64,000 bases of DNA from Oscillospiraceae bacterium (GTDB taxonomy: Bacteria; Bacillota; Clostridia; Oscillospirales; Oscillospiraceae): positions 24,819 through 88,818 of the forward strand of contig CACWLG010000005.1 in NCBI GenBank assembly GCA_902761635.1, read 5' to 3'. Below, piece by piece: positions 14,533-64,000 of the stretch; the first letter of the stretch is position 1, and each line of letters opens with the position of its first letter. The notes beneath the pieces were generated by a model. That model was not told the DNA's origin and searched no databases. It saw only the letters and a program-made list of their open reading frames with translations. The position numbers and the translations under genes were made by a program.

Positions 14533-14634
14533 CGAAAAGGTATTGCGAAAAAGCAACGAATTGTGGTAAGCTATAGAGAGCTGGGAAGCAATTCAGTTTT
14601 AGTATATTTTTCTATTATGGAAAGGAAAGACAGC

Positions 14635-18900: not shown

Positions 18901-21177
18901 ATGACAACAGCAAAAAAAGGCAGCGCTCTGCTTCTGGCCCTTCTGCTTCTCCTGTCGCTGATGCCGGGGAGCTTTGCCTCGGCGGAGGAGCCGAACGCGG
19001 ATGTCAACCGCTTTAATGTCGTGCTCGTCATCGACAAGAGCGGAAGCCTGCGGGACGCAAACGGTCAGGGAACCGATCCGGACGGCCTGCGCTTTGATGC
19101 GATGCGCCTCTTTCTCGGGCTTTTGACGGAGCGCGGCAACAACGTCGGCGCAGTGGTGTTCGATCAGGAGATCCGCTATGATTCCGGCCTTCGGAAGATG
19201 GACGGGATGGAGGACAAGAAGAATCTGATCCGTGAGGCGGAAGCCTATACGCCCGCTTACGATACGGATATCGGAAGCGCGGTTTTACGTGCGACACAGA
19301 TGCTGCAGGGCATGCGGGAGGAAAACGATCTGCCCTGCATGATCCTGCTGCTCACCGACGGAAAAACGGACTTCACCACGGAAGCCGGACAGGAAAAGAA
19401 GCAGGCCTCCTGGGCGGTGGCGCAGCAGGCGCTGGACTCCGCAAAGGAGGCGCACATCACCATCAGCGGCATCCTCCTGAATGTGGACGGTAAGGGCGAC
19501 GGCGGCAGATGGGAATTTACAGCCTATACCCAGGGGACCGGCGGGAGCTTTGTGGAAGTAAGCCGGCCGGAGGATCTGGCCGATGCGTTTAGGCAGTTCT
19601 ATTCCATGATCAACAACACCGTCTATACCGGGGCGCAGCGGGTCGCTTTCTCCGACGATGGCAGGGCGGAGTTCTTCTTCACCGTGCCGAGCTTCGGCGT
19701 GGAGGAGGTCAACGTCATCGTGGAGCATGATACCGCGCCCGACGACAGAACTCTGGACACGCTCGTGGGCGTCGAGATCCTCCAGCCTGACGGCAGCCGG
19801 TACGACGATGCGGAGCATGCCCTGCTGAGCTCGCGGTACATCCTTGTGAAAATTCCCGCCCCTGCGGTGGGCGAGTGGCAGGTCCGCCTTGCGGGTGAGC
19901 CGGAGGACTGGGTCGATGTGACCATGGTCTACAATGCCTCCATGTCTGTCTCTCTCGAAGGGGACAGACCCACGGGCGCCTACCGGGCCTATTCCCCCTA
20001 TAGCTTCAAAGCGTCGGTCACAGATCCCGGCGCCGGAAAGATTACCCAGGAGGAGCTGCAGAAACTCCGGGCGGTCCTGTCGGTCGAAAACCTCGCCACC
20101 GGCGATGTGCGCGAATACGCCATGACGGCGGGAGAGAACGCCTATACCAGCGAGATCAGCTTCCTGAAGGGCGGCGACTATGCCCTCACGGCCGAGGTTG
20201 GGATCGGCGGCTTCAAGGTCCGCTCCGCGCCCATGGCAGTGACGGTAGAGCCCTGGCCCCTGGTCGCAAAGGTCAGCCGCATCACGGATATCCTGCAGTA
20301 CGGCCGCTTTGTCGGCGACTGCTGGGTGCTGGAGCTGGGGGAGCTCTTCGGCGTCACGGATACGAGCGGGATACGCTACAGCCTCTCTGACGACTGCGGC
20401 GGCATCCTGACGATAGAGGACGGCGTACTGCGGGCGCGCTTCGGCTTGACCGAAGAGGTCTCCTTCGTGCTGACGGCCTCGGACCTCATGGGGCAGAGCG
20501 CGGACATCAGCTTTGACCTGAAGATCCCCCATGTCACCGCGACGACGGAGCGCGTCAACAGCCTGCTCAGCCAGGGCCGACTCGGCGATCACCGCTGGGA
20601 AATGGAAGTCGATGGCCTCTTCACCGATCCCAAGGGCTGCCCGCTGGCGCTTGCCCTGTCGGACGATTGTGGGGGCTGTGTCACACTGACGGACGGGCTT
20701 TTGGAGCTGGACCTCCGGGAGCTGAGAGAGGCGGCGTTCACCGTCTCGGCCACGGACATTTTCGGCGCGAGCGCGGAAGTTCCGTTCGAGCTCAAGGTTC
20801 CGGGCCCCGCGGCCTCCGTGCAGGCGATCAGCGAAACGGTCAAGACCGGCCTTTTCCAGGAGGGAACCTGGGAGCGGGAGCTCAGCTCCCTGTTCCGTGA
20901 CCCGAAGGGCACCGCCCTGAGCTATGTCCTTTCCGACGATTTCGGCGGCAAGGTACAGATCACAAACGGCAGGCTGAAGGTGGACTGCAGGGGCGTCAAG
21001 ACCGCCTCCTTCGCTGTGAAGGCCACCGATGAATACGGCCTGAGCGCGGAAATCCCCATCACCATCACCGAGAAAAACATGAACGTCCGCTATGCGCTTT
21101 ACGGTCTCGGCGGCCTGATCCCCATCGGCAGTCTGATCGGCCTTGCTGCTTATCTGCGCAAAAAAGGAAAGATATAA
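18901..21177 (+). CDS. Surface VWA-domain protein with three Ig-like repeats and a C-terminal TM anchor
   Basis: 758 aa with a signal peptide and the MIDAS motif VIDKSGS. Three repeats of about 90 aa lie at roughly 20272-21075 (..LSDDCGG..L...DG.L..). The C-terminal TM segment plus KKGKI follows. It starts 23 nt after the nuclease gene. Confidence 0.8.
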   Translation: MTTAKKGSALLLALLLLLSLMPGSFASAEEPNADVNRFNVVLVIDKSGSLRDANGQGTDPDGLRFDAMRLFLGLLTERGNNVGAVVFDQEIRYDSGLRKMDGMEDKKNLIREAEAYTPAYDTDIGSAVLRATQMLQGMREENDLPCMILLLTDGKTDFTTEAGQEKKQASWAVAQQALDSAKEAHITISGILLNVDGKGDGGRWEFTAYTQGTGGSFVEVSRPEDLADAFRQFYSMINNTVYTGAQRVAFSDDGRAEFFFTVPSFGVEEVNVIVEHDTAPDDRTLDTLVGVEILQPDGSRYDDAEHALLSSRYILVKIPAPAVGEWQVRLAGEPEDWVDVTMVYNASMSVSLEGDRPTGAYRAYSPYSFKASVTDPGAGKITQEELQKLRAVLSVENLATGDVREYAMTAGENAYTSEISFLKGGDYALTAEVGIGGFKVRSAPMAVTVEPWPLVAKVSRITDILQYGRFVGDCWVLELGELFGVTDTSGIRYSLSDDCGGILTIEDGVLRARFGLTEEVSFVLTASDLMGQSADISFDLKIPHVTATTERVNSLLSQGRLGDHRWEMEVDGLFTDPKGCPLALALSDDCGGCVTLTDGLLELDLRELREAAFTVSATDIFGASAEVPFELKVPGPAASVQAISETVKTGLFQEGTWERELSSLFRDPKGTALSYVLSDDFGGKVQITNGRLKVDCRGVKTASFAVKATDEYGLSAEIPITITEKNMNVRYALYGLGGLIPIGSLIGLAAYLRKKGKI

Positions 21178-51230: not shown

Positions 51231-51260
51231 TTGCTTATTCTGACCGAGGGAGAGAGCGTC

Positions 51261-52757
51261 TTGCTGTTTAACTCCGGAAAATATGTTATTTTCCTCCCCA
51301 TTGTCGTGTTGCTGTATTATTTGCTGCCCGCGAAGGCAAAAAAATACTGGCTTCTGGCGGCAAGCTATTATTTCTATATGTGCTGGAACGCAAAGTACGC
51401 GCTTTTGATCTTTGCCTCCACGCTCATCACCTGGCTCAGCGGCCTGGGGCTTGAGCGGGTGAAGGCGGGAGACTATGCGCCCGCGCAGCGGGAGAAGCTG
51501 AAAAAGTGGATCGTCGGGCTGAGCTTTGTCTCCAATCTTGGCATCCTGTTTTTTTTCAAGTACTTCAACTTCAGCGTGGGCCTGGTGCAGGCGCTGCTCA
51601 CGCAGCTGCATGTTCAGGTGCGTCTTCCGTCCGTCAACATCCTCCTGCCCGTGGGCATCTCCTTCTATACCTTCCAGGCTCTCGGCTATACCATGGATGT
51701 ATACCGGGAGCAGATCCCGGCCGAGCGGGACTTCTTCACCTACGCCCTCTTTGTCTCCTTCTTCCCGCAGCTTGTGGCCGGCCCGATCGAGCGCTCCGGA
51801 AATCTCCTGGGTCAGCTCTCGGTACTGCACAAATTCAGCTTTGACAACCTGCGGGAGGGGCTGCTCATCATGCTCTGGGGCTTCTTCCTGAAGCTCGTGA
51901 TCGCCGATCGTCTGGCTCTGTATATCGACACGGTTTACGGCGCGCGCTATCTCTATCCCGGCGCCTACCTGGCGCTGGCCGCCATCCTGTTCGCCATACA
52001 GATTTATTGCGATTTCTACGGTTATTCCACCATCGCCATGGGCAGCGCGAAGCTGCTGGGCATCGAACTGATGGAAAACTTCCGCTCGCCATTTCTCTCC
52101 ACCACGGTGGCGGAGTTCTGGCGCAATTGGCACGTCTCTCTCACCTCCTGGTTCAAGGACTATCTGTATATCCCCCTGGGCGGCAGCCGCAAGGGGATGC
52201 TCCGAAAGCAGCTCAACCGCATGATCGTCTTCCTGGTAAGCGGCCTGTGGCACGGGGCGGACCTGTCCTATGTGGTCTGGGGCGGCCTGAACGGACTGTA
52301 TCAGGTGATAGGGGAGCTGCTGATGCCGCTGCGCCTGAGGCTCTCGAGGCTCCTGCATATCGACCGCAGCTCTCTCGGGGTGAAGCTTGTGCAGATCCCG
52401 GTGACCTTCTGCCTCTTTGCCTTTTCCCTGATCTTTTTCCGCGCCGGCTCCGTGGGGGAGGCCATCGCCGTCATCGGCAGCATCCTCCATGTCCGAAACC
52501 CCTGGATCCTCTTTGACGGTTCCCTCTTTCTGCACGAGTATGACAGCGCCATGGTGCTGCCCATGACGCTCTTTATGGGGGCGCTGCTGCTTTCGGATAT
52601 CTGCAAGCAGCGGGGCATTGCCATTCGGAAGATCATTCTGCGCCAGGATGCCTGGTGCCGCTGGCTGGTCTTCGCTCTCTCCACCGCTGTTGTGCTGCTC
52701 TTCGGCGTGTGGGGCCCCAGCTTCAGCGAGGCAAACTTTATCTATTTTCAGTTTTAA
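51261..52757 (+). CDS. MBOAT family O-acyltransferase (AlgI/PatA/DltB-like)
   Basis: A TTG start at 51261 follows GAGGGAGAGAG and gives MLFNSGKYVIF.. . The His motif WRNWHVSLTSWFKDYLYIPLGG is present. Confidence 0.85.
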   Translation: MLFNSGKYVIFLPIVVLLYYLLPAKAKKYWLLAASYYFYMCWNAKYALLIFASTLITWLSGLGLERVKAGDYAPAQREKLKKWIVGLSFVSNLGILFFFKYFNFSVGLVQALLTQLHVQVRLPSVNILLPVGISFYTFQALGYTMDVYREQIPAERDFFTYALFVSFFPQLVAGPIERSGNLLGQLSVLHKFSFDNLREGLLIMLWGFFLKLVIADRLALYIDTVYGARYLYPGAYLALAAILFAIQIYCDFYGYSTIAMGSAKLLGIELMENFRSPFLSTTVAEFWRNWHVSLTSWFKDYLYIPLGGSRKGMLRKQLNRMIVFLVSGLWHGADLSYVVWGGLNGLYQVIGELLMPLRLRLSRLLHIDRSSLGVKLVQIPVTFCLFAFSLIFFRAGSVGEAIAVIGSILHVRNPWILFDGSLFLHEYDSAMVLPMTLFMGALLLSDICKQRGIAIRKIILRQDAWCRWLVFALSTAVVLLFGVWGPSFSEANFIYFQF

Positions 52758-52772
52758 GGACGGGCATGCCAG

Positions 52773-54221
52773 ATGAAAACAAAAAGATTCCTGAGCTGCC
52801 TTGCCGCCCTGTGCCTGACGGGAGCACTCCTGTGGGGGCTGACCTGGCTGACCCAGAAAAAGGACAGTTATGCCAAAAACGCAGAGTTTTTTGAGCAGAA
52901 GGCGGATTACGACGTGTTCTTTGTCGGCTCCAGCCGCCCCATGAACGGTATCTTCCCCATGGAACTGTGGGAGGATCACGGCTTTGTCTCCTATAACTGG
53001 GCCCAGGCGGGGCACCCGCCTCCCGCCTACTATTGGGTCATGCGCCTGGCTCTGGACTATAAGCAGCCGAAGCTCATGGTCATCGACTGCTACGGCATGC
53101 ACTTTGACGCAAAGACTACCGCAGTCTTCGGCCTGATGCACATTTCAATGGACAGCTTTCCCCTCAGCCTCAACAAGATCCGCGCCGTGCGCGACATGCT
53201 GGACGACCCGGCCATGACGGAGGAGTTCAACGAGGGGGAGCGCCGCAGCGCCTTCAACCTCCTGTGGACCTTCCCTGTCTTTCACTCCCGCTGGAGCCAA
53301 CTGACGGCGGAGGACTTTTACCCGCAGAAGAGCCTGACCCGCGGGGCCATCGCAAACAACGAAATCTACGGCGGTGAATTCGTGCCCGATGACAGCGAGA
53401 AGGGCGCGGTCTTCGATACGGTGGGGGTAAAGTATCTGCGCCGTGCCATCGAGGAGTGCCAGAGCCGGGGCATCGAGGTCCTCGTAACCTTTCTGCCGCT
53501 CTATGCCGACGCCCATCAGCAGGCTGCGGCGGAATATGCGGGAAAGATCGCGGCGGAATACGGGGTGGACTATCTCAACTTCTTCGACCTGGATGTGGTG
53601 AACTACCATATCGACTTTGCCGACAGCGCCGGACACCTGAATACTGCGGGCGCGCGGAAGGTGACAGAGTACCTCGGCAATTATATCGCCGGGCGCTATG
53701 GAATCCCCGATCACCGGGGCGAGGAGGCTTATGCCGACTGGGCGCGGGATCATCAGCTCTATACGCAGAAAAAGAATGAGACGCTCCGCACCGAGGAAGA
53801 TCTTTACCGCTATCTCATGCTCCTGGAGCGGGATGCGGTGGATGCGGCCCTCTTTGTCCGGGACACGGAGCTGTTCCGGGACCCGATCGCAGCGGAGTTG
53901 CTTGCGGCCCTCGGCGTTGAAACGGAACAGTGCGGCGCGGAGACAAAGCTCATCCTCATCCGTCACGGCGGGGAGCGCACCGCGGTCCTGAACCGCCTGC
54001 CGAAGCCCGGCGAGAGCCTGGAGACGGCGGCGGGCACGCTCGGCGGCGGGGAGGGTCTGACGCTTGACGGCATGCCTCTTGCCTCACCGACAGAGGAGGG
54101 TGACCTTTGCGCCTGCATTCTGCGCGACGGCGAGCAGATCGACTGCGCGCGCTTTCGCTACACCTTTGATGCCTCACGCGGCGTCGTCAGCCAATACGGC
54201 GTGAGCCGGGAAACCGCATGA
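52773..54221 (+). CDS. Membrane-anchored MBOAT partner protein (PatB/DltD/SGNH-like; function uncertain)
   Basis: 482 aa with an N-terminal TM anchor. FFVGSSRPMNG resembles a GSS catalytic-Ser block. It starts 15 nt after the MBOAT gene. Confidence 0.5.
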   Translation: MKTKRFLSCLAALCLTGALLWGLTWLTQKKDSYAKNAEFFEQKADYDVFFVGSSRPMNGIFPMELWEDHGFVSYNWAQAGHPPPAYYWVMRLALDYKQPKLMVIDCYGMHFDAKTTAVFGLMHISMDSFPLSLNKIRAVRDMLDDPAMTEEFNEGERRSAFNLLWTFPVFHSRWSQLTAEDFYPQKSLTRGAIANNEIYGGEFVPDDSEKGAVFDTVGVKYLRRAIEECQSRGIEVLVTFLPLYADAHQQAAAEYAGKIAAEYGVDYLNFFDLDVVNYHIDFADSAGHLNTAGARKVTEYLGNYIAGRYGIPDHRGEEAYADWARDHQLYTQKKNETLRTEEDLYRYLMLLERDAVDAALFVRDTELFRDPIAAELLAALGVETEQCGAETKLILIRHGGERTAVLNRLPKPGESLETAAGTLGGGEGLTLDGMPLASPTEEGDLCACILRDGEQIDCARFRYTFDASRGVVSQYGVSRETA

Positions 54222-54249
54222 AAAGCCAGGCACTTTTGCCTGGCTTTTC
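54222..54249 (+). terminator. Rho-independent terminator
   Basis: AAAGCCAGGCA / TGCCTGGCTTT form the stem, followed by a T-run. Confidence 0.65.
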
Positions 54250-54343
54250 CGCTGCTCTCTGACAGGGCAGACCTTCCGGCAAGGGTAAGAACGGTACGCC
54301 CATGCTGTGTCCTGCGTATTATGGGAATCGGAGACAAAAGCAC

Positions 54344-54373
54344 TTGCGTATAAAGATACAGGCATGGTATAAT
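54344..54373 (+). promoter_or_regulatory. Sigma-A-type promoter of the DUF2156-MATE-partner-switch operon
   Basis: TTGCGT-18 nt-TATAAT with a TGn extended -10 element. Confidence 0.5.
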
Positions 54374-54415
54374 AAAGAATAATTTGTTATGACATACAGG
54401 GGGATAGGAAACAGA

Positions 54416-55258
54416 ATGGATTTTCGTCCGCTGTGCCTGGAGGATCGGGCATGGATCACGGAATGCCGGGACATACAGGCAAATCCTTTTACGGCGCTTT
54501 CCTTCCCGTCTCTTTATTCTTGGCGTAATGCCTACGGTTATACCGTCACCGGGGATGAGAACTTCTTCGTGATCCGCAGTGCGCATGACGAGGGCTATTA
54601 CTGCCCCTGCGGAGACCCGGAAAAGTGCAGCGCTTTTCTTGACGGCCTGGAAAGACCGGGCCGGGTTCTGTATCTGACACGCCAGCAGGCCGAGAGCCTG
54701 GCGGGGCGCGGCTGGTCCGTCCGGCACCGGGAGGATCTGAGTGAGTACATTGTCTCCGTTGCGGCCGAGGCGCTTCGGGAGGGGCACATTTCCAAGAGCT
54801 TTCGGGATAAGTGCCGCCGCTTTAAGAAAACCTATGCCTACACGATCAGCGTACCGGGGCCTGAACAGAAGCTGCTCATGCGTCAGATTCTCCGTAAGGT
54901 GCGCCTGGACCCGCGAGAGGCGGTCATGGGTGACATCAGCGTTCTGTCTACGGAGATAGAATACAGCGAACAGCTCGGCCTGCGCACTTACCTGCTGCAG
55001 ACGGAAGGCAAGGGGAATGCCCTGTTCGCCGGCTATGAGAACAAGCCGGACATGTTTACCATGACGATGGTCAAGCACGATCCGACTCTCCCGCCGGAGA
55101 CCACAGCCGTCTGCGTCCATGAGCTGGCACGGCTGCTGGACGGGCAGTACCTGTACATGAATTTGGAAGAGGATCTCGGGCTTGAGGGACTGCGCAGGTC
55201 CAAAATGCTCTACAGTCCTGTGGATCGCCTGGAGGTTTATGAGGCATTCAAAGAGTGA
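54416..55258 (+). CDS. DUF2156-like protein (MprF C-terminal synthase-like, GNAT fold)
   Basis: The start is taken at MDFRPLCLEDRAWI.. . The pattern ..FTALSFPSLYSWRNAYGY..ENFFVIRS resembles the DUF2156 N-terminal region. Assigned by eye only. Confidence 0.5.
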   Translation: MDFRPLCLEDRAWITECRDIQANPFTALSFPSLYSWRNAYGYTVTGDENFFVIRSAHDEGYYCPCGDPEKCSAFLDGLERPGRVLYLTRQQAESLAGRGWSVRHREDLSEYIVSVAAEALREGHISKSFRDKCRRFKKTYAYTISVPGPEQKLLMRQILRKVRLDPREAVMGDISVLSTEIEYSEQLGLRTYLLQTEGKGNALFAGYENKPDMFTMTMVKHDPTLPPETTAVCVHELARLLDGQYLYMNLEEDLGLEGLRRSKMLYSPVDRLEVYEAFKE

Positions 55259-57030
55259 AGAACAATCATTATATCTGCCGCAGAATGTTTTTCCAGGTGC
55301 TGTGGCCTTCTCTGATTTCCGCCGCGGCGCTGTCTGCCGCCAATATGGCGGATGCGGTCGCCCTCGGCAACCGCATGGGGGAGAGCGGCCTTGCGGCAAT
55401 CGGCATCGTGACGCCGCTGTATATGTTATACAACGTGGTGGGCCTTGCCATCTCCACAGGCGGCGGCGTGACGCACAGCGGCCTCACTGCTGAAGGAAAA
55501 GAGGAAGAGGCCCTTGCCCACTTCCGGAGCCTGGGGATCCTGGCACTCTCGGTGGGCGTCCTGTTTGCCGTGCTGGGCAATGTACTGATGGAGCCGATTC
55601 TCCGCCTGCTGGGCGCCGGCAAGGCGCAGCAGGGCATTATGGCTCTGTGTGAACAATACGCGCGGCCTGTCTTTATCAGCGCGCCGGTCTTCATGCTAAA
55701 CTATCTGTTATATGACATTGTGCGCTGTGACAACGGCACGCGGCGCGCGACGCTTGGCTTTTCGGTGGGATGCATTACGGATGTGGCGCTCAACATCCTT
55801 TTCGTGATGCTTCTGGGCTGGGGGCTGCGCGGCTCTGCCTTGGCCACGGTGATCGCCCAGTGTATGAGCGTTTTGATTATGCTGCCGCATTTTTTCAGCG
55901 ACAGCGGCGTCCTGCAGTTCCGGCGGCTTCGCGGCCGGCTTCACGGCGGTGCTGTGCCGGCTCTCGTAGGCCGCTCCGTCAGGATCGGCTTTTCGACCTC
56001 GGCGCGCTATATCTTCCAGTTCCTGTTTCTGATGCAGGGCAACCGTCTACTGCTGAAGGCCGGTGAGCGCAGCATCATCAACGGGGAGGTCTATGTCGCG
56101 GTCTTCGACGTGATTATGAACGTATCCTATCTCGCCCATGGAATTTACCAGGCCTATTCTGATACCATGCAGCCGCTTGCCGCAACCTTCCATGCCGAGC
56201 ATGACGCGGATGATCTGCGTTACCTGCTCAGACTTGCGACCCGCCATGGGCTTGCGGTGGGCATGACAGCGGGCGTGCTGCTGTGCGTGTTCGCAAAGCC
56301 GGTATCGTATATATTCGGCCTCACGGACCCGAAGACGCTGGAGGTCTCCGTGAGGGCGATCCCGATCTTCTGCCTGAGCACGCCCTTTGCCGGCATCACC
56401 ATCATCCTCACGGGCTTCTACCAGTCCACGGGGCAGGTGAAGCTTGCAAGCCTTGCGACAAGCTTTCGCACTCTGGTCTTTCTCCTGCCGCTCACCTTTA
56501 CGGCAGGCCGGTTCTTCCCGCATGAGTTCTGGTGGCTCTTCCTGGCAAGCGAGGCAGGCTCGCTCGCCTCGCTGGTCGTCGCGGCGGGGATCAACGGAAA
56601 GAAGACGAGGCAGCACACAAGGGTACCGGTCGTTACGGCAACCCTGGGTCCGGACAAGCGGGAGTTCGGACCGGTCATGGAGCGGGTCGCGGCTTTCTGC
56701 GAAGAGCAGCAGATCCCCCGGAAGCAGGCCATGCTGATCGAGCAGGCGGTGGAGGAGCTGTGCCTCGTCACCTGGGTGAAGGCCTTCAACGGAGGACCGG
56801 ATGAATACATCTGCCTCACGCTGGCGGCGGAGGAGAACGGAGAGTACGTCCTGTATATCCGCAACAGCGCACCCTACTTCAATCCCCTTACCATGCGCAT
56901 GGACAGGATAAGCGCCGGATCGCAGACAGAACTGAGCGACTCCGCAGGCGTGATGATGATAAAAAATCGGGTGAAGGATCTGCGCTTTCGCAATTATCAG
57001 GGGTTTAACGTGATGACGGTCAGGATCTGA
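55255..57030 (+). CDS. MATE/MOP-family transporter with a C-terminal RsbW-like (HATPase_c_2-like) domain
   Basis: A GTG start overlaps the upstream stop. About 450 aa form a 12-TM MATE core (FFQVLWPSLISAA..). The C-terminal 140 aa or so aligns by eye with the stand-alone RsbW-like protein at 58727-59137. Confidence 0.75.
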   Translation: MKNNHYICRRMFFQVLWPSLISAAALSAANMADAVALGNRMGESGLAAIGIVTPLYMLYNVVGLAISTGGGVTHSGLTAEGKEEEALAHFRSLGILALSVGVLFAVLGNVLMEPILRLLGAGKAQQGIMALCEQYARPVFISAPVFMLNYLLYDIVRCDNGTRRATLGFSVGCITDVALNILFVMLLGWGLRGSALATVIAQCMSVLIMLPHFFSDSGVLQFRRLRGRLHGGAVPALVGRSVRIGFSTSARYIFQFLFLMQGNRLLLKAGERSIINGEVYVAVFDVIMNVSYLAHGIYQAYSDTMQPLAATFHAEHDADDLRYLLRLATRHGLAVGMTAGVLLCVFAKPVSYIFGLTDPKTLEVSVRAIPIFCLSTPFAGITIILTGFYQSTGQVKLASLATSFRTLVFLLPLTFTAGRFFPHEFWWLFLASEAGSLASLVVAAGINGKKTRQHTRVPVVTATLGPDKREFGPVMERVAAFCEEQQIPRKQAMLIEQAVEELCLVTWVKAFNGGPDEYICLTLAAEENGEYVLYIRNSAPYFNPLTMRMDRISAGSQTELSDSAGVMMIKNRVKDLRFRNYQGFNVMTVRI

Positions 57031-57047
57031 CCGGACGGCGAAAAGAG

Positions 57048-58730
57048 GTGACATATTTGGAAAAGAAAAAGCAAAGAGTTTCCATGTCTGTCAAGCTGAA
57101 TGCGCTGACAATGGTCATTATTCTGGCCCTGTCCGCTGTTCTGATCATCATTGCCTATGACGTGAACAGCCGGCAGGTGGATACATACTATAAGGCAATG
57201 ACCGCCAATGGCGCCCGCACCGTAGCGTCTTTTCTGGACGGGGATTGGATCGACGGCTTTGTGGACACAATTCAGTCTGAGGAGTATCAGAAGCTGCGCA
57301 CAAAAGCCATCGAAGCAAAGGACGAAGAGATGATCCGGCAGTACCTGGTTCAGAACGGCTGGTATGAGGGCTTTGAAACGGTGCGCGATATGCTCGGGCA
57401 GTACAGGGACAGGCTGGGCGTGGCCTATGTCTATACCGTCACGCTGGAGGGGGAGGACAGCTTTACCATCATCGACCCCGATGAGAATCTGTTCTATATT
57501 GGCACCTTCATCCCGCTCCCGCCGGAGTTTCATGATCTCAAGGAAGGGCAGGCGATCGAGCCTACCGTCTCTGTGACAGATTACGGCTGGCTCTGCTCGG
57601 CCTATGATATCATCCAGACCTCCAAAGGCGGGTATGCCGCCCTTGTGGGGGTGGATATCGACATGACCGAGGTCATGACCGAGCGGGAGGCCTTTCTGAA
57701 GCGGATGATCATCTCCTCGGGCGGTCTGCTCCTCATCTCCATCCTCGCCTCGGTCCTGCTGATGCACAAGGTGGTGGTTGATCCCCTGAAAATGCTCTCT
57801 GACGCGACCAGAGGCTTTACCGAGCACGATCACGGCTTTAAGAAGGAGGATATCATCTCCCTGCCGATCACGGCCAATGATGAGATCGGCGACCTGTATC
57901 AGGTGATCCGGACCATGCAGGGAAAGATCGTCGAGTATCTGGACAATCTCACCAGCGTCACCGCCGAGAAGGAGCGCATCAGCGCGGAGCTGAGCATTGC
58001 CACCCAGATCCAGGCTGACATGCTGCCCCGCATCTTCCCGCCCTTCCCGTCCAGGCATGACTTTGACATCTACGCCACCATGACGCCTGCCAAGGAAGTG
58101 GGCGGCGACTTCTATGATTTCTTCCTGATTGACGATGATCACCTGGGCCTTGTGATGGCGGACGTGTCCGGCAAGGGTGTGCCGGCGGCCCTTTTCATGG
58201 TGATCGCCAAGACCCTCATCAAAAACCGTACGATGATGGGCACCGGCCCTGCCGAGGTGCTGCACCATGTCAATGAGCAGCTTTGCGAGGGAAATGAGGC
58301 GGAGCTGTTTGTGACGGTGTGGCTTGCGATCGTGGAGCTGTCCACGGGCAAGGGCCTTGCCGCCAATGCCGGGCATGAGCACCCTGTCATCCGGCATGCG
58401 GACGGGCAGTATGAGCTGGTGGTATACCGCCATTCGCCGGCAGTGGCGATCATGGAGGGCATGCGCTTTCAGGAGCACAGCTTCGAGCTCAAACCGGGCG
58501 ATTCGATCTTCGTCTATACCGACGGGGTAACGGAGTCCACCAATGCGGACAACGAGCTTTTCGGCACCGACAGATTGCTGGAAGCGCTCAACCGCAATCC
58601 GGACGCATCACCGGCGGAGCTGCTGCCGCAGGTCAAGGCGGCGATCGACAGCTTTGTGGGCGAAGCGCCGCAGTTCGACGACATCACCATGATGTGTATG
58701 CAATATAACGGTGCGGAGGTGAAAACGTGA
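57048..58730 (+). CDS. Membrane sensor PP2C phosphatase (RsbU/SpoIIE family) with an extracytoplasmic domain and HAMP
   Basis: Two TM segments flank a domain of about 190 aa. A HAMP domain (..ANDEIGDLYQVIRTMQ) is followed by the SpoIIE motif GGDFYDFFLIDDDHLGLVMADVSGKGVPAALFM. The start may instead be the TTG at 57057, after AAGAGGTG. Confidence 0.8.
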   Translation: MTYLEKKKQRVSMSVKLNALTMVIILALSAVLIIIAYDVNSRQVDTYYKAMTANGARTVASFLDGDWIDGFVDTIQSEEYQKLRTKAIEAKDEEMIRQYLVQNGWYEGFETVRDMLGQYRDRLGVAYVYTVTLEGEDSFTIIDPDENLFYIGTFIPLPPEFHDLKEGQAIEPTVSVTDYGWLCSAYDIIQTSKGGYAALVGVDIDMTEVMTEREAFLKRMIISSGGLLLISILASVLLMHKVVVDPLKMLSDATRGFTEHDHGFKKEDIISLPITANDEIGDLYQVIRTMQGKIVEYLDNLTSVTAEKERISAELSIATQIQADMLPRIFPPFPSRHDFDIYATMTPAKEVGGDFYDFFLIDDDHLGLVMADVSGKGVPAALFMVIAKTLIKNRTMMGTGPAEVLHHVNEQLCEGNEAELFVTVWLAIVELSTGKGLAANAGHEHPVIRHADGQYELVVYRHSPAVAIMEGMRFQEHSFELKPGDSIFVYTDGVTESTNADNELFGTDRLLEALNRNPDASPAELLPQVKAAIDSFVGEAPQFDDITMMCMQYNGAEVKT

Positions 58731-59137
58731 AGGAAATAACACTGGATGCAAAGCTTGGGAACCTGGATGAGGTCCTTGCCTTTGTGGACAGCCGCCTGGA
58801 GGAGCTGGAGTGCCCCGTGAAGGCGCAGATGCAGATCGACGTAGCGGTGGAGGAGATCTTTGTCAATATCGCAAGCTACGCCTATGAAGGGCAGCCAGGC
58901 AGCGCCACCATCAGGATGGAGATCAGACAGAACCCGAAAAGTGCTGAGATCACTTTTCTCGACCGGGGAATCCCCTACAACCCGGTGGAAAAGGAGGACC
59001 CGGACGTCTCTCTCCCGATAGAGAAGAGAAGGATCGGCGGCCTCGGAATTTATATGGTAAAAAAGAGCATGGACGAAATGCTCTATGAACGCAGGGACGG
59101 ATACAATATTCTGACCATCATCAAAAAAATATCATGA
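58727..59137 (+). CDS. Anti-sigma-factor-type serine kinase (RsbW/SpoIIAB-like)
   Basis: A GTG start follows GGAGGTG and overlaps the upstream stop. Contains ..DVAVEEIFVNIASYAY.. and ..RRIGGLGIYMVKKSMDE (N-box and G-box). Confidence 0.75.
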   Translation: MKEITLDAKLGNLDEVLAFVDSRLEELECPVKAQMQIDVAVEEIFVNIASYAYEGQPGSATIRMEIRQNPKSAEITFLDRGIPYNPVEKEDPDVSLPIEKRRIGGLGIYMVKKSMDEMLYERRDGYNILTIIKKIS

Positions 59138-59156
59138 GGAAAAGGAGAATAATATC

Positions 59157-59456
59157 ATGCTGAACATTATCAAGAACCTGGATCATAAGACCCTCACGAT
59201 CGCCCTGGAGGGGCGCCTCGATACCACTACCGCACCGCAGCTTGAAACGGAACTGAAGAGCGACGTTGCCGATGTCACGCTTCTCATCATGGATTTTGAG
59301 AAGCTCGACTACATATCCTCCGCTGGCCTTCGCGTGCTGCTCTCGGCTCAGAAGGTCATGAACAAGCAGGGCACGATGAAGATCATCCACGTCAGCGATG
59401 CCATCAACGATATTTTTGAGGTGACGGGCTTCAGCGATATTCTGAATATCGAATAA
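59157..59456 (+). CDS. STAS-domain anti-sigma-factor antagonist (RsbV/SpoIIAA-like)
   Basis: 99 aa with an AAGGAG SD. DFEKLDYISSAGLRVLL contains the phosphorylatable Ser motif (D.ISSAGL). Confidence 0.85.
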   Translation: MLNIIKNLDHKTLTIALEGRLDTTTAPQLETELKSDVADVTLLIMDFEKLDYISSAGLRVLLSAQKVMNKQGTMKIIHVSDAINDIFEVTGFSDILNIE

Positions 59457-59458
59457 GC

Positions 59459-60259
59459 ATGGCTTCAGAGACCGGAATGAAACTGACAGTGCTGGGCGCA
59501 CGGGGCTCCATGGCCGTCAGCGAAAAGGGGCGGGAGCGCTTTGGCGGCGCCACCTCCTGTTATATGGTGCAGGCCGGTGATGATTGTGTCTTTCTCGACG
59601 CGGGCAGCGGCCTGCTTTCGGCGCCTGTGCGCTTCCCCAAACCGCCGCTGATCCTGCTGAGCCATCTGCATCTGGACCACGTGCTCGGCCTGGGCATGTA
59701 CGCGCGGCTGCTGCTGGAGGGAGAAAAAACCGTGATCTGCGTCCCGGCGGACAATGATGAGGATGCCCGCGCACAGCTCAACAGCCTGTTCTCACCGCCT
59801 TACTGGCCGGTGGCGCTGGAGGAGTACCGGGGAGATGTGGTAATCCGCTGCACCGTCACGCCCATGCAGGTCGGGTCAATCCATGTTGAGAGCATCCCCG
59901 GCAATCATCCCAGCGGCTGCTGCGTATTCAAGCTCAGCTGCGGGGAGAAGTCTCTGGTCTATGCCACCGACTATGAGCATGATGAGGCAAGCTTTGACAG
60001 ACTCACGGAATTTGCCGCAGGGACCGATCTGCTGCTCTATGACGGACAGTACGACGAGGAAGAATATCTGAGAAACAAGGGCTTTGGACATTCCACGCCA
60101 AACAAGGGGATCGAGCTGATGGAGCGCAGCGGGGCAAAGCACCTGCTTCTGGTGCACCACAGCCCCTTTGCCTTGGACACGCAGCTGCTGCTCAGGCAGA
60201 GCCTGATCGGGCGCAGCAATGTCAGCTTTGCACGGGAAGGGGAGGTGTTGAGCATATGA
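59459..60259 (+). CDS. MBL-fold metallo-hydrolase
   Basis: 266 aa containing the HxHxDH motif (SHLHLDHVLG). It starts 2 nt after the STAS gene stop. Confidence 0.75.
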   Translation: MASETGMKLTVLGARGSMAVSEKGRERFGGATSCYMVQAGDDCVFLDAGSGLLSAPVRFPKPPLILLSHLHLDHVLGLGMYARLLLEGEKTVICVPADNDEDARAQLNSLFSPPYWPVALEEYRGDVVIRCTVTPMQVGSIHVESIPGNHPSGCCVFKLSCGEKSLVYATDYEHDEASFDRLTEFAAGTDLLLYDGQYDEEEYLRNKGFGHSTPNKGIELMERSGAKHLLLVHHSPFALDTQLLLRQSLIGRSNVSFAREGEVLSI

Positions 60260-61026
60260 GCGTGAATCCGGAAGAGGAAATCAGAACGCTGCAGGAGGAA
60301 AACGAAGCGCTGCACCAGACCCTTCGGGAGAGGGAAGAGTTTATCCACCACACCTTCGGACGCTATCTCACCGATGAGGTCCTGGAAGAGATCCTGTCGG
60401 AGAAGGGCAAGTTCCGTATCGGGGGCGAGCGGCGCGTTGTGTCGATGCTCTTTGCCGATTTGCGTGGGTCCACAGCCCTCTCCGAGGAGATGGATCCGGC
60501 TGATTTTATCCGTATGCTCAATCACTTTTTCGGGGAGCTGATCGAGATCATCAACGCCTGGCAGGGGAATATCCTGGATTTTGTGGGTGATGAGATCGTG
60601 GTCGTCTTCGGCGCTCCGCGGCAGAGCACCTATACCTCACGCGACGCCGCGGGCTGCGCGGTCGCCATGCAGCGGCGCATGACTTTCGTCAACGAGTGGA
60701 ACCGAACGCAGGGCTATCCTGAGATCTCCATGGGGATCGGACTTCACACAGGGGAGGCCATCCTCGGCAATATCGGCTCGGAGACGCGCACCAAATATGA
60801 CATGATCGGCCGCAACGTCAATCTGGCCTCCCGCGTGCAGAGCTATACCGGCGGCGGGCAGATCCTGGCGACCGAGGAGCTGGTGGAGGCGGCAGGCGAT
60901 CAGGTGCTGATCAATGAGAGCGGCTGCATCTGGGTCGAGCCCAAGGGCATCCAGGGCAAAATCAAGCTCTACGATATTATCGGCTTTGGGAAGCAGCGGA
61001 TACCGGAGGTCGCAGAAAATGACTGA
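60256..61026 (+). CDS. Class III nucleotidyl cyclase (CHD domain) with a short coiled-coil N-terminus
   Basis: VVSMLFADLRGSTALSE, DFVGDEIVVVFGAP, GLHTGEAILGNIG and YDMIGRNVNLASRVQ are class III motifs. The start overlaps the MBL stop (ATGA). Confidence 0.85.
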   Translation: MSVNPEEEIRTLQEENEALHQTLREREEFIHHTFGRYLTDEVLEEILSEKGKFRIGGERRVVSMLFADLRGSTALSEEMDPADFIRMLNHFFGELIEIINAWQGNILDFVGDEIVVVFGAPRQSTYTSRDAAGCAVAMQRRMTFVNEWNRTQGYPEISMGIGLHTGEAILGNIGSETRTKYDMIGRNVNLASRVQSYTGGGQILATEELVEAAGDQVLINESGCIWVEPKGIQGKIKLYDIIGFGKQRIPEVAEND

Positions 61027-62242
61027 CAGAAATTTGCGCATTTCCCAGGCAATCTGGCAGATCACGCAGGAGCTGCGGAACGCCGAGACGCTGGATGACG
61101 CTATCTCGGCGAGCCTTGAGATCGTCATCGACACGCTTGACAGTGAGGCCGGGTCAATCTGGCTGCTGGACAAGGGAACCAACCGTCTGTATACCATCTT
61201 TAACCATGGGCCGGCGGACATCAGCGGCATCACCATCGAAAACGGCCAGGGCATTGCGGGCGTAGTGACCATGAGCGGAGAAGCCGTGCTCAATCCGGAC
61301 ATTGAAAAGGACGAGCACTTCAACCCCGGCGTGGATGAGGAGTCGGGCTTCAAAACCAAAAGCCTGATCTGTGTCCCGCTCAAGGCGCCCAATGGGATCA
61401 TCGGCTGTATCGAGATCCTTAACCGACGGGACGGCGGCCTCTACGATCAGGAGGATCTGACCCTCTGTGAGACGATGGCCTCGCTTGCTGCCGTTGCCAT
61501 GGAGGAAAAAGGCTTCTTTTTTAAACCGACCGAGGATAAGGAAATCCTGATTTCTCTGCGCAATGTCACCAAGGACTATCCCTCCGGCGATTCGATGCTG
61601 CATGTGCTGCGCGGCATCAATCTTGACATCTACAAAAATGAATTTCTGGTTGTCCTGGGGGAATCCGGCTGCGGCAAATCCACGATGGTGAATGTGATCG
61701 CCGGCATGGACTCTCTCACCGGCGGCCAGCTGATCATCAACGGGAAGGATTTTTCCCATCCCAGCGACAAGGAGCTCACACGCTACCGGCGCGACTACCT
61801 GGGCTTCGTCTTTCAGTCCTATAATCTGATGCCGAATCTCACGGCGCAGGAGAACGTACAGTTTATTGCAGAGATCGCACCGAACCCCATGTCCGCGGAG
61901 GAGGCCATTGCCAAGGTCGGCCTCACGGACCGGGCCGACAACTATCCCTCAGCCCTCTCTGGCGGTCAGCAGCAGCGCGTGGCCATCGCTCGCGCCGTCG
62001 TCAAGCGGCCGCAGATCATCTTTGCCGATGAGCCCACCGCAGCGCTGGACTATCAGACCAGCATTGAGGTCCTGTCGGTTTTCGAGGAGATCAAAAAGGA
62101 CATCGGCACCACCATCATGATGATTACCCACAACCCCGAGATCGCCAAGATGGCCGACCGTGTCATCAGACTTCGGGACGGGAAAGTTTCCACCATCAAA
62201 ATCAATTTGCACCCGCTCAGCGCAGCAGAGTTGAAATGGTAA
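61019..62242 (+). CDS. GAF domain fused to an ABC transporter ATP-binding domain (MacB/FtsE-type)
   Basis: The ATG at 61019 overlaps the end of the cyclase gene. The GAF domain of about 170 aa (..GQGIAGVV..DEHFNPGVDEESGFKTKSLICVPL..) is followed by Walker A GESGCGKST, the signature LSGGQQQR and Walker B IIFADEPT. Confidence 0.85.
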   Translation: MTDRNLRISQAIWQITQELRNAETLDDAISASLEIVIDTLDSEAGSIWLLDKGTNRLYTIFNHGPADISGITIENGQGIAGVVTMSGEAVLNPDIEKDEHFNPGVDEESGFKTKSLICVPLKAPNGIIGCIEILNRRDGGLYDQEDLTLCETMASLAAVAMEEKGFFFKPTEDKEILISLRNVTKDYPSGDSMLHVLRGINLDIYKNEFLVVLGESGCGKSTMVNVIAGMDSLTGGQLIINGKDFSHPSDKELTRYRRDYLGFVFQSYNLMPNLTAQENVQFIAEIAPNPMSAEEAIAKVGLTDRADNYPSALSGGQQQRVAIARAVVKRPQIIFADEPTAALDYQTSIEVLSVFEEIKKDIGTTIMMITHNPEIAKMADRVIRLRDGKVSTIKINLHPLSAAELKW

Positions 62243-62245
62243 AAG

Positions 62246-64000
62246 CATGACAAGAACGCAGTTTACGGATGCCCTCCGCAATGTGCAGAAGCAGATCATC
62301 CCCTGGGTCTCCATCGTGGTGATCGGGATGGTTTCGCTGATCGCCTATCTCAGCCTCGTGTATTCCAGCGAAGCTATCCGGGGGGCCGCTTCCGCTTATT
62401 ATAATACATATGACTTCTGGGATCTGGAGATCACGTCTTCTCTCCTGCTGGATGAGGAGGATCTTGCAGTTCTGCACAGCCTTGATGGGGTAGAGAGCGC
62501 AGAGCCCGTCTGGGCAGTCGGGACAAAGCTCCTCGAACCGCCGACGCAGACCGCCGTCACGGTGCAGGCGCTGCCGGAGACGATCTCCCTGCCCGAGCTT
62601 CTGGATGGCCGCCTGCCGGAGACGGCGGACGAGTGTATCATCGAGCATTCAATGCAAGGGAATACGGGCCTCGGCATCGGCGATCGGCTCCGGGTCGAGA
62701 ACAGCAGCGTTGGCGGGGTCGAGCCGCTTCGTGTAACGTCCTATACTGTGACCGGCATTTTCCGCCATCCGGACCATGTCAGCATAGAACTGCCGGAGGC
62801 GCCGTATGTGCTGGTGACAAAGGATTGCTTCGACCTCGAGGGCTTGAACGGCGCCTTTATGAAGATCCGCCTGCGTGTCACCGATACACCGGATCAGCGC
62901 TATACCGAGGACTACAACAAGGCCATCCGGGCGGTGGAGGAAAGCGTCAGGACCGTCATGGAGGAGCGCGCAGCAGCGCGGACAGAAAAGCTCCGCGCCG
63001 ATTCGGCCAGAAAAATCGAAGAAGGCCAGCAGCAGCTGGACGAAGCCTCCGCAAAGCTGGAGGAAGGCAGGCAGCAGCTGGAGGAGGGCAGACAGAAGCT
63101 CGAGGAGGGCGCACAAACACTCGCCTCTTCCCGCGATCAGCTTGATGACGGCTGGACACAGCTCAAGGATGCCGAGGAACAGTTGGATTCAGCCGAGGCA
63201 AAGCTGGACGCCGGCGCCCAGGTCCTTGTCGATGCGCAGTATCAGATCGCTGCGCTGGAAGGCCTCCTGTACAAGGCCGAGGGGGCGCTCAGCCTGGCGA
63301 ACAGACTGACCGGCATAGACGTGGAAAGCTATCTGCCCGCCGTCGCCTCCGATGCGCTGCAGCAGGCCAGGGACGGCGCAAGTGCCTATAACAGCGGACG
63401 CGACCTGTGGTATTCCAGCGGCGAGGAGTATCTGGACGCCATGATCGAATATGAGCAGGGCAGGAAGCGCCTGGAGCAGGCTGAGCAGGAATACGAAAAG
63501 GGTAAAGAGGAGTATGAAAAAGGCAAGGCGGAATTAGAAGAGAAAACAAGGGAGTTTGAAGAGAAACAGGCAGAGTACGAGGATGGCATAAAACAGCTTG
63601 AAAACGCCAGGCTCCAACTGAAGGCCATCGGGCCGGCCCGCTGGTTGGAGTGGGGCGACCTCGGAAACACGGGCTATGCCTTCGTGGAAAGCCAGGCGGC
63701 GGGCCTGGCCTCTATGTGTTATTCCTTCTCCATCCTTTTTCTCATGATTGCGGCGCTGGTAATCTATGCCACCGTCGGCCGCATGGTACAGGAGCAGCGT
63801 GCCCAGATCGGAACCTCGAAGGCGCTGGGCTTTTATAACAGCGAGGTCCTGAATAAGTACATGTTTTTCGGCATCAGTGCCGCCCTTACGGCTGTGATGC
63901 TGGGCGTGGCGCTCAGCTATTTCGTGATGCAGCGCAGGTTCCTGATATACTATGAGCCTTTCTTTATCTTTGGGGAGATCCCGCGCTGCTTCCGTCCTGT
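62246..64000 (+). CDS. FtsX/MacB-type ABC permease with a large coiled-coil extracytoplasmic domain (3' end outside the window)
   Basis: The frame is open from the ATG at 62246 to the window edge (585 codons) and is not in the ORF track because no stop is reached. A TM1 segment is followed by a MacB-like domain, then long Q/E/L-rich heptad repeats, then ..IGTSKALGF.. typical of FtsX. Confidence 0.75.

Follow-up and report, generated by a model that had tools for sequence, protein, structure and literature searches.

We describe a ten-gene operon, located at the end of a 64-kb stretch of DNA (hereafter the window, whose numbering is used for its features) from an uncultured rumen Clostridia (Oscillospiraceae/Ruminococcaceae) bacterium, in which a complete partner switch is encoded together with a cyclic-nucleotide cassette and two transporters, without any sigma factor gene. 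The operon is built of four modules that recur separately in other genomes: a DUF2156 protein with a MATE transporter bearing an RsbW-like tail; a PP2C phosphatase with an RsbW-like kinase and a STAS protein; a metallo-β-lactamase (MBL)-fold hydrolase with a nucleotidyl cyclase; and an ATP-binding cassette (ABC) ATPase carrying a GAF domain (GAF-ABC) with an FtsX-type permease. We give about an even chance to the view that two inputs, the phosphorylation state of the STAS protein and a cyclic nucleoside monophosphate (cNMP), converge on these transporters with no sigma factor involved.

The gene content, the domain architectures, the intact catalytic motifs and the conserved linkage patterns reported below are direct observations on the window, on about 5 kb of downstream sequence taken from related contigs with identical proteins, and on 160 related loci (L numbers). 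Domains were called with Pfam, further models were taken from NCBIfam, PADLOC and Rfam, and structural relatives were found by sequence and profile searches of the PDB and with Foldseek. Synteny rests on the coordinates of hidden Markov model matches; the simple caller based on open reading frames (ORFs) merges adjacent genes, as in a 1265-residue ORF of L015.

The partner-switch components

All parts of an RsbU/RsbW/RsbV-type switch are present: a SpoIIE-type phosphatase, a GHKL-type serine kinase and a single-domain STAS protein with a phosphorylatable Ser. Hydropathy and Pfam give the phosphatase a transmembrane (TM) helix (residues 19-37), an extracytoplasmic domain of about 180 residues, a second TM helix (about 222-240), a HAMP-like linker and the SpoIIE domain (residues 362-553), and its translation contains the catalytic metal-binding Asp motifs (GGDFYD, ADVSGKG, TDGVTE, and FDDITM). 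An earlier reading, made from the letters of the window only (the sequence-only reading), had proposed the same architecture with a HAMP domain; this last element is represented in the window protein by the motif NDEIGDL after the second TM helix, with no HAMP detected by Pfam at E<0.01, while the L112 homologue does match Pfam HAMP. In the free kinase, the N-box (EEIFVNI), the G1 box (DRGIPYNP) and the G2 box (GGLGIY) are intact and are conserved in the alignment of its orthologues. Phosphatase and kinase are fused into one protein in L092 and L112.

The STAS protein scores 67.6 bits against TIGR00377, above the cut-off of 53.45. Its motif DYISSAGLRVLL does not vary within the family, DYISSAGL is invariant in the alignments of about 40 orthologues, and Ser54 aligns with the phosphorylated Ser of SpoIIAA. 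With the phosphatase motifs, the kinase boxes and the STAS motif all intact, the three components look functional.

A reverse scan from the STAS family returned more than 585 metagenome matches, and 80 loci were analysed. The commonest context among these metagenome loci consists of the STAS gene, a MATE gene with a HATPase_c_2 tail, a small enzyme and a fused HAMP-PP2C-RsbW protein. A second, different flavour of partner switch occurs in these neighbourhoods, in the form of a fused STAS-APH(kinase)-HATPase_c_2 protein (524 residues, L077 12523-14097) that recurs in L035, L043, L080, L147, and L166. This fusion is usually followed by a PHP-domain protein, a type encoded by 6 of the 42 genes that follow RsbW-like domains.

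No sigma factor in the operon or around it

Pfam listings of the called genes and direct scans revealed no sigma-factor domain in the 64-kb window or in the 5 kb downstream. The sequence-only reading had noted this absence for the operon and the window, which the Pfam listings confirm, and it had staked its proposal on there being no sigma factor just past the window end; the next 5 kb contain none. Likewise, no sigma domain is among the Pfam families listed for 42 distinct genes that follow the RsbW-like kinases of the family, the families found there being STAS, PHP, transporters, GAF-ABC, and MBL.

These data bear on the conventional explanation, in which the kinase serves as the anti-sigma factor of a sigma factor encoded at another place in the genome, the transporter and cNMP genes merely travelling along in the transcript. 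Weak matches to the RsbW, SpoIIAB and SpoIIAA models are indeed obtained with the kinase and the STAS protein, and the inspected part of the genome amounts to only about 69 kb. Nevertheless, the scores against the RsbW and SpoIIAB equivalogs are far under the cut-offs (34 vs 145 bits), the RsbW-like domains of this family are found fused to transporters and to PP2C, and neither the window and its downstream 5 kb nor the 42 genes following family kinases provide a sigma factor. A sigma factor encoded elsewhere is thus disfavoured by the family-wide contexts, and we consider the anti-sigma explanation very unlikely.

The MATE transporter and its RsbW-like tail

The transporter encoded by the second gene scores 144.2 against TIGR00797, slightly below the cut-off of 147.4, and matches Pfam MatE in two stretches with 83 bits; one homologue also gives a weak MurJ match. 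A role as a MOP-type flippase is possible from these similarities. Its C-terminal tail covers the whole HATPase_c_2 profile with a score just under the gathering cut-off (26.9 vs 27.4 bits), and the assignment is backed by a family of MatE + HATPase_c_2 proteins. An exhaustive representative search for this tail family gave about 180 clusters at 50% identity; most of the full-length ones are about 580 residues long with the match at the C-terminus, and all ten clusters sampled combine MatE with HATPase_c_2.

Alignment with the free kinases indicates that, in this clade, the tail has lost the Asn of the N-box, the Asp of G1 and the GGLG of G2. As these residues bind ATP, the tail is likely a pseudokinase able only to bind, and we regard it as a likely receptor for the STAS protein. 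In 9 of the 43 informative metagenome loci, a STAS gene lies less than 450 nucleotides (nt) upstream of the tailed MATE gene. The idea put forward earlier that the tail is a target of the STAS protein is therefore plausible, considering the size of the fusion family and the position of STAS directly upstream in these nine loci.

The DUF2156 protein encoded by the first gene has 2hqy as its best solved relative and is related to the C-terminal aminoacyl-phosphatidylglycerol synthase domain of MprF. Together with the MATE transporter, it may form a pair of an enzyme and an exporter, much as MprF combines a synthase half with a flippase half. One of the ten sampled tail clusters, P0259 (871 residues), has LPG_synthase_C (DUF2156), MatE and HATPase_c_2 naturally fused in a single protein, which would make the operon's first two genes a functional unit. 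A DUF2156 gene is also found between the STAS and the RsbW-like gene in L124.

A further type of transporter gene, encoding a sodium:dicarboxylate symporter (SDF), is found directly downstream of RsbW-like kinases in L144 (12138-13778), L152 (11500-13155), and L163 (11165-12748). The N-terminal extensions of these proteins, about 130 residues long, are weakly similar to RsbW-like domains (E 0.008-0.06 in a search of 42 sequences); we did not count such weak values from so small a search as evidence. SDF proteins may represent a third transporter type with a STAS receptor.

The MBL-cyclase cassette

The MBL protein has the di-metal motif HxHxDH in the form HLHLDH. Its AlphaFold2 model (mean predicted local distance difference test score, pLDDT, of 95.9) has Bacillus subtilis YhfI (6kns, PMC9293780) as top match in the Foldseek fold search, and the same protein is the top match by sequence (phmmer). 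YhfI is a class II phosphodiesterase that cleaves and prefers cyclic AMP (cAMP) and cyclic GMP (cGMP) (PMC9117128), and the MBL protein is a probable atypical class II cyclic-nucleotide phosphodiesterase on the basis of this sequence and model similarity. The sequence-only reading had recognized the hydrolase and overlooked this likely role. Apyc1 was considered as an alternative identity and set aside, the Apyc1 structures occupying only ranks 27-34 of the fold search, after YhfI, RNase Z and members of the PhnP family; we call the protein YhfI-like.

The cyclase consists of an N-terminal coiled coil (signalling helix), a cyclase transducer element and the catalytic domain, without a sensor domain. 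Its best PDB match is Synechocystis Cya2 (2w01, E 1.7e-47, 165 bits), and the catalytic residues Asp68 and Asp112 (metal), Asn189, and Arg193 are invariant in six orthologues. The base-specifying pair is Asp (Asp, Glu or Gly in the orthologues) followed by Asp, and differs from the adenine pair of Lys with Asp (or Thr). As the adenine-specifying Lys is absent, the product may not be cAMP and is possibly cGMP. Cya2, a guanylyl cyclase, has a Glu at the first of these positions.

A scan of the MBL family gave 838 matches. The orthologous MBL-cyclase pair, with 56-60% identity between the cyclases, overlaps by 4 nt in a Clostridia metagenome-assembled genome (MAG) and in an Atopobiaceae MAG. In L174 (5901-8595) and L176 (104-2649), and also in L177, the pair is flanked by two small proteins of about 155 residues consisting only of a cNMP_binding domain (PF00027), an arrangement that looks like a compact, undescribed cNMP signalling cassette. 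L174 and L176, which are from other taxa, have no partner switch with the cassette. Since the pair is found beside different cNMP readers, it appears to be a portable cassette of a writer and an eraser.

The presence of a cyclase and an MBL protein recalls Pycsar anti-phage systems: the cyclase would make a cNMP upon infection, GAF-ABC/FtsX would be a membrane-disrupting effector, and the MBL protein would be an Apyc1-like off-switch. The cyclase does match PADLOC PycC models, with up to 69 bits, and MBL homologues give faint Anti-Pycsar_Apyc1 (PF23023) matches, but the cyclase is far closer to Cya2 (165 bits). The PADLOC matches are only generic ones, to PycC and ABC-like models, and no other protein meaningfully matches a defence model. 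In addition, the context is one of housekeeping and envelope genes, syntenic across species, and not a defence island. Pycsar effectors have PF00027 fused to TM or TIR domains, not a GAF-ABC, and none is present here. An anti-phage function of this type is thus highly improbable.

Two separable associations of the GAF-ABC transporter

The nucleotide-binding domain of the GAF-ABC ATPase is of the DevA/MacB/LolD/FtsE type, according to its best NCBIfam matches. When the profile of its GAF domain is compared with the PDB, the top 18 distinct matches are cNMP-binding GAF domains or close relatives (E 1e-24 to 1e-13), with Lcd1 bound to cAMP, CyaB2, PDE5, PDE2A, PDE6, and PDE10 among the solved relatives and 5w10 (the best, 9.5e-25) and 1ykd among the entries. 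These similarities place the domain in the cNMP-binding GAF subgroup, and ligand binding is predicted. The gating of GAF-ABC/FtsX by a cNMP, as suggested in the sequence-only reading, is therefore plausible, since the best solved relatives of the GAF domain all bind cNMPs and the cassette is found elsewhere beside PF00027 proteins.

By hydropathy, the permease (1004 residues) has eight TM helices arranged as a duplicated 4+4 unit, and its first extracytoplasmic domain (residues 36-487) contains MacB_PCD and a coiled coil of about 240 residues. An FtsX permease, a MacB_PCD between the first two TM helices and an ATPase of the MacB/LolD/FtsE clade identify a type VII ABC transporter. GAF-ABC proteins fall into more than 120 clusters. 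A search with an alignment restricted to the GAF domain gave about 134 relatives in species-representative genomes, nearly all of them rumen Clostridia MAGs, and the analysis covered 80 loci. The permease adjoins GAF-ABC downstream in 74 of these 80 loci and upstream in 2 more, and GAF-ABC with FtsX is thus the invariant core.

This core has two kinds of neighbour. The MBL-cyclase cassette is directly upstream of GAF-ABC in five of the 80 loci, all in the nearest clade (L012, L014, L016, L017, and L020). Some part of a partner switch is present in 39 of the 80, and STAS orthologues of one tight family (50-80% identity) are immediate neighbours of GAF-ABC/FtsX in about 18-21 species whose locus contains no cyclase. 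The STAS gene is at most 500 nt upstream in 14 of 71 loci and at most 500 nt downstream of the permease in 4 of 67. On the GAF-ABC tree, the linkage occurs in three distinct arrangements, with STAS upstream, downstream, or separated from GAF-ABC by the inserted cassette. In many loci (e.g. L035-L043), the three genes for STAS, GAF-ABC and FtsX are packed closely together, and no MATE gene occurs within 10 kb. The STAS protein also has a weak match to mlaB_1 (24 bits).

The sequence-only reading had proposed a linear relay, in which the STAS state controls the cyclase or the MBL protein and the cNMP is the sole signal to GAF-ABC/FtsX. In agreement with such a relay, STAS, MBL, cyclase and GAF-ABC are translationally coupled in that order here and in L012, and likewise in L092, there without GAF-ABC. 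Moreover, the cyclase has a signalling helix and a transducer element without a sensor of its own and so needs regulation in trans, and a partner switch driving a nucleotide cyclase is known from the activation of SiaD by SiaC (PMC8457831). Nevertheless, the neighbourhood survey argues against this proposal. In three of the five loci with the cassette upstream of GAF-ABC (L014, L017, and L020), no partner-switch genes adjoin the cassette, L020 having only an opposite-strand PP2C gene downstream; in L174 and L176 the cassette accompanies cNMP_binding proteins without a partner switch; and STAS flanks the transporter in the species without a cyclase mentioned above. Finally, the operon of L015 and L018 is preserved all the way from the DltB-like MBOAT gene to that of the secreted protein, with a nucleoside phosphorylase in place of the cassette. 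The relay is thus quite unlikely. As GAF-ABC/FtsX shows two separable associations, one with the cNMP cassette and one with STAS, we favour a model in which the two inputs converge on the transporter.

The phosphorylase of these two loci (PNP_UDP_1, 244 residues, E 1.5e-59; L015 8809-9543 and L018 8808-9539) is encoded between the kinase and the STAS genes. Another variant, L092 (2858-4725), combines a PP2C-RsbW fusion, STAS, MBL, the cyclase, a bitopic coiled-coil protein of 350 residues and an orthologue of the secreted protein (78% identity). It was examined as an independent case of a partner switch with a cyclase and no ABC transporter, and rejected: the 350-residue protein matches only the N-terminus and the coiled coil of FtsX, GAF-ABC and the rest of the permease being missing, so that this gene is an FtsX remnant and the locus a deletion variant or a mis-assembly.

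Several observations weigh against the convergence of both inputs on the ABC transporter. Most GAF-ABC loci have no adjacent cyclase, and the GAF domain may bind something other than what this cyclase makes, perhaps even a ligand that is not a cNMP. The MBL protein reaches no curated phosphodiesterase family threshold (NF041851, PF02112), with 58.4 bits against a cut-off of 400 for NF041851 (cyclic nucleotide-degrading phosphodiesterase), and RNase Z models score the same. The sampled loci are mostly from rumen MAGs and are phylogenetically clustered, and their counts overstate the number of independent events. More than half of the GAF-ABC loci have no STAS gene in the 10-kb flanks, and control by STAS therefore cannot be obligatory. 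In the reverse direction, only 3 of the 80 STAS-centred metagenome loci contain a GAF-ABC; the STAS family is promiscuous in its contexts, and its adjacency to GAF-ABC could reflect shared regulation and not contact.

These last points agree with an explanation by independent, co-transcribed modules, according to which the MATE tail, or some other RsbW-like receptor, is the sole target of the switch, GAF-ABC/FtsX responds only to the cNMP, and the linkage reflects a shared envelope-stress regulon. Indeed, MATE is the only transporter here with an obvious STAS receptor domain, GAF-ABC and FtsX being devoid of HATPase_c_2, and the STAS family is most often found with MATE-tail genes. However, the compact STAS/GAF-ABC/FtsX units without MATE, the survival of the linkage through at least three rearrangements and the structural precedent of MlaFB for a STAS protein on an ABC nucleotide-binding domain leave this explanation plausible yet unlikely, in our opinion.

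Proposed mechanism

In the convergent model, an extracytoplasmic signal would set the phosphorylation state of the STAS protein through the PP2C phosphatase, opposed by the kinase acting on Ser54. Unphosphorylated STAS would bind the pseudokinase tail of MATE and thereby switch transport on or off, and it would probably also bind the GAF-ABC ATPase, by analogy with the binding of MlaB to MlaF. Independently of STAS, the cNMP, whose level would depend on synthesis by the cyclase and breakdown by the phosphodiesterase, would bind the GAF domain and gate ATP hydrolysis. The ABC transporter would thus integrate two inputs, and the MATE tail would be a second STAS-associated receiver. The contacts, the sign of the regulation, the nucleotide and the cargo are all predicted from genomic data in this scheme.

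A more ambitious form of this model, which we advance as tentative, is that the partner switch has been re-targeted from sigma factors to transport, with RsbW-like pseudokinases as plug-in STAS receptors and with GAF-ABC as a two-input gate on which STAS docks and to which a cNMP, possibly cGMP, binds.

Comparison with known systems

The closest non-transcriptional switches combine, as here, a PP2C phosphatase, an RsbW-type kinase and a STAS protein: SypE-SypA of Vibrio fischeri, HsbR-HsbA-HsbD of Pseudomonas and HenR-All4160 of Anabaena. The first two had already been cited as precedents in the sequence-only reading, which missed two others discussed below, namely SiaABCD, closer in that a switch acts on a cyclase, and MlaB-MlaF, in which a STAS protein acts on an ABC ATPase. 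In SypE, the kinase and the phosphatase are on one polypeptide, whereas here their genes overlap, with fusions in L092 and L112. The outputs of the three systems are related to the envelope or to polysaccharides; in contrast, the outputs predicted here are transporters, the tailed MATE and GAF-ABC/FtsX, and no glycosyltransferase or diguanylate cyclase takes part.

In SiaABCD of Pseudomonas aeruginosa, a phosphorylation switch is relayed to a second-messenger cyclase of the same operon (PMC8457831, PMC7647112). The PP2C phosphatase described here has SiaA as its best NCBIfam match. However, SiaC falls outside the classical STAS proteins, and SiaD is a diguanylate cyclase of the GGDEF type, whereas the present cyclase is of class III and is not tied to the switch by comparative genomics.

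In Escherichia coli MlaFEDB, MlaB binds the nucleotide-binding domain of MlaF, with the residue equivalent to the phosphorylation site in the interface, and the phosphomimetic T52E weakens binding (PMC7367683). Both systems have a single-domain STAS protein encoded beside an ABC ATPase, binding being predicted in the present case. Phosphoregulation of MlaB is only hypothesised, no kinase or phosphatase being known, whereas both are encoded alongside the STAS protein here. The transporters also differ, MlaFEDB being an MlaE-type ABC transporter and the present one of the MacB/FtsX type with a GAF domain.

In cNMP-responsive GAF proteins (Leptospira Lcd1, Anabaena CyaB1 and CyaB2, PDE2, PDE5, PDE6, and PDE10), an N-terminal GAF domain allosterically controls a C-terminal catalytic domain; in GAF-ABC, the domain in the regulated position is the ATPase of an ABC transporter. 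Compared to Cya2, whose base-specifying pair is Glu and Gly, the cyclase and its orthologues have Asp, Glu or Gly followed by Asp, and the cyclase is without CHASE2 or a TM sensor. The MBL protein shares the HxHxDH motif with class II MBL phosphodiesterases (YhfI, Rv1339, CpdA, and Apyc1). The transporter has in common with MacB, FtsEX and BceAB-type systems (type VII) the ATPase type, MacB_PCD with FtsX and the topology of the 4-TM units, and differs from them by a single 1004-residue permease with two such units, the coiled coil of about 240 residues, the GAF domain on the ATPase and, in this clade, a secreted protein of 267 residues.

In the literature searched, we found no description of a GAF-fused ABC ATPase, of MATE pumps with RsbW-like tails, of MBL and cyclase as a conserved overlapping gene pair or cassette, or of a partner switch aimed at transporters.

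Operon layout and boundaries

The features of the operon are listed in Table 1. The single promoter, the nine tightly packed ORFs on the + strand and the domains attributed to them in the sequence-only reading were all found again by ORF analysis, Pfam and inspection of the sequence. The promoter was not listed by a consensus scanner, presumably due to its weak -35 hexamer at a spacing of 18 nt, and leaves a 5' untranslated region of only about 15 nt. Rfam, at gathering thresholds, gave no riboswitch or other RNA element in the whole window.

Table 1 Features of the operon in the window.
Feature	Position	Strand	Basis and remarks
Terminator hairpin, GCCAGGCA-CTTT-TGCCTGGC with T-run	54222..54250	+	Sequence reading; ends the upstream gene and delimits the operon on its 5' side
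Sigma-70-type promoter with extended -10, TTGCGT-N18-TGgTATAAT	54344..54373	+	Sequence reading
DUF2156 / LPG_synthase_C	54389..55258	+	Pfam 50.7 bits; alternative start 54416
MATE/MOP-family transporter with C-terminal RsbW-like tail	55255..57030	+	Pfam MatE 83 bits; hydropathy; alternative start 55285
RsbW-like (HATPase_c_2) tail of MATE, residues 469-589	56659..57021	+	Pfam; alignment with free kinases
Membrane sensor PP2C phosphatase	57048..58730	+	Pfam SpoIIE 168 bits; hydropathy
RsbW-like serine kinase, 136 residues	58727..59137	+	Pfam HATPase_c_2 79.6 bits; alignment
STAS protein, 99 residues	59157..59456	+	Pfam; TIGR00377; family alignments
MBL-fold hydrolase	59459..60259	+	Pfam Lactamase_B_2
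Short class III nucleotidyl cyclase	60256..61026	+	Pfam Guanylate_cyc 91.5 bits
GAF-ABC ATPase, 407 residues; GAF residues 23-162 (61085-61504)	61019..62242	+	Pfam GAF and ABC_tran; NCBIfam
Duplicated FtsX/MacB-type permease, 5' part of 1004 residues	62247..64000, runs off the window	+	Pfam MacB_PCD and FtsX; full length from L001

The GTG start of the kinase overlaps the phosphatase stop by 4 nt, MBL and cyclase overlap in an ATGA, and cyclase and GAF-ABC overlap by 8 nt; gaps of 17, 19 and 2 nt separate MATE from PP2C, kinase from STAS, and STAS from MBL, respectively. These junctions are as given in the sequence-only reading, apart from the gap between GAF-ABC and FtsX, which is 4 nt instead of 3. 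Public gene calls have later ATG starts for DUF2156, MATE and PP2C, with which two junctions would become 26 and 53 nt.

Past the window end, L001 provides the complete permease, the tenth gene, encoding a signal-peptide protein of 267 residues (14258-15061), and a strong terminator hairpin. The genes after this terminator, within the 5 kb downstream, encode a methyltransferase, ecfA1, ecfA2, ecfT, truA, and cvpA. The secreted protein gave no Pfam, NCBIfam or PADLOC match and is kept only in the clade of the window (L012, L014-L020); outside the cytoplasm it may work with the coiled-coil permease, by analogy with FtsEX and its hydrolases. The full gene order is repeated in a second species-level genome, L012, with 87% identity in the GAF region, and the operon is therefore not a chance juxtaposition.

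Envelope context and other genes of the window

Directly upstream of the operon (51231-54221, + strand) are the genes for a DltB-like MBOAT (TIGR04091, 142 bits, below the cut-off) and for a signal-anchored protein of 482 residues without a family match. This pair stays linked to the operon in L012, L015 and L018, which suggests a shared role in envelope modification, even though the terminator separates the two here. Neighbours in related loci include VanX-like, YkuD, DUF218 and nonribosomal peptide synthetase (NRPS)-like genes. A role in the cell envelope or in relation to antimicrobial peptides is likely, because of the DltB-like MBOAT, the MprF-like DUF2156 protein with its MOP-type transporter, the MacB/Bce-like ABC transporter and these VanX-like, YkuD, DUF218 and NRPS-like neighbours.

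Further upstream, a single ORF of 6854 codons (22345-42909, + strand), whose orthologue on a related contig has SpaA and DUF7601 domains, likely encodes a surface adhesin or a pilus-like fibre. Type IV pilus/type II secretion system (T2SS)-like genes are found on both sides of it (two T2SSE, T2SSF, PilM, T2SSM, a prepilin peptidase and an N_methyl pilin), and a stand-alone GGDEF protein (10823-11749, + strand) is encoded beside the pilus ATPase genes. The window also includes genes for a MoxR-like AAA ATPase and a VWA-domain protein (365-1849 and 18901-21177).

Significance

Partner switching is usually taught as a means of controlling sigma factors, the few known exceptions acting on enzymes. 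We infer from genomic data that the operon represents non-sigma partner switching in a new, transporter-directed form; together with its relatives, it points to a class of switches whose output is transport itself, with the receiver fused to the pump in the approximately 180 MATE-tail clusters. The family is large and each step of the model is directly testable. In particular, the operon offers a concrete system for the control of ABC ATPases by STAS phosphorylation, a question left open for MlaFB. If the more ambitious form of the model is correct, GAF-ABC/FtsX would be the first ABC transporter gated by a cNMP and the first natural example of ABC control by a phosphoregulated STAS protein, so far no more than a hypothesis for MlaB-MlaF.

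Three undescribed architectures are common in rumen Clostridia, a group whose cNMP signalling has barely been studied: the GAF-ABC, the MATE that ends in an RsbW-like domain, and the MBL-cyclase cassette, which pairs with exchangeable cNMP readers. The transporters concerned may play a part in how rumen bacteria defend their envelope and tolerate antimicrobials.

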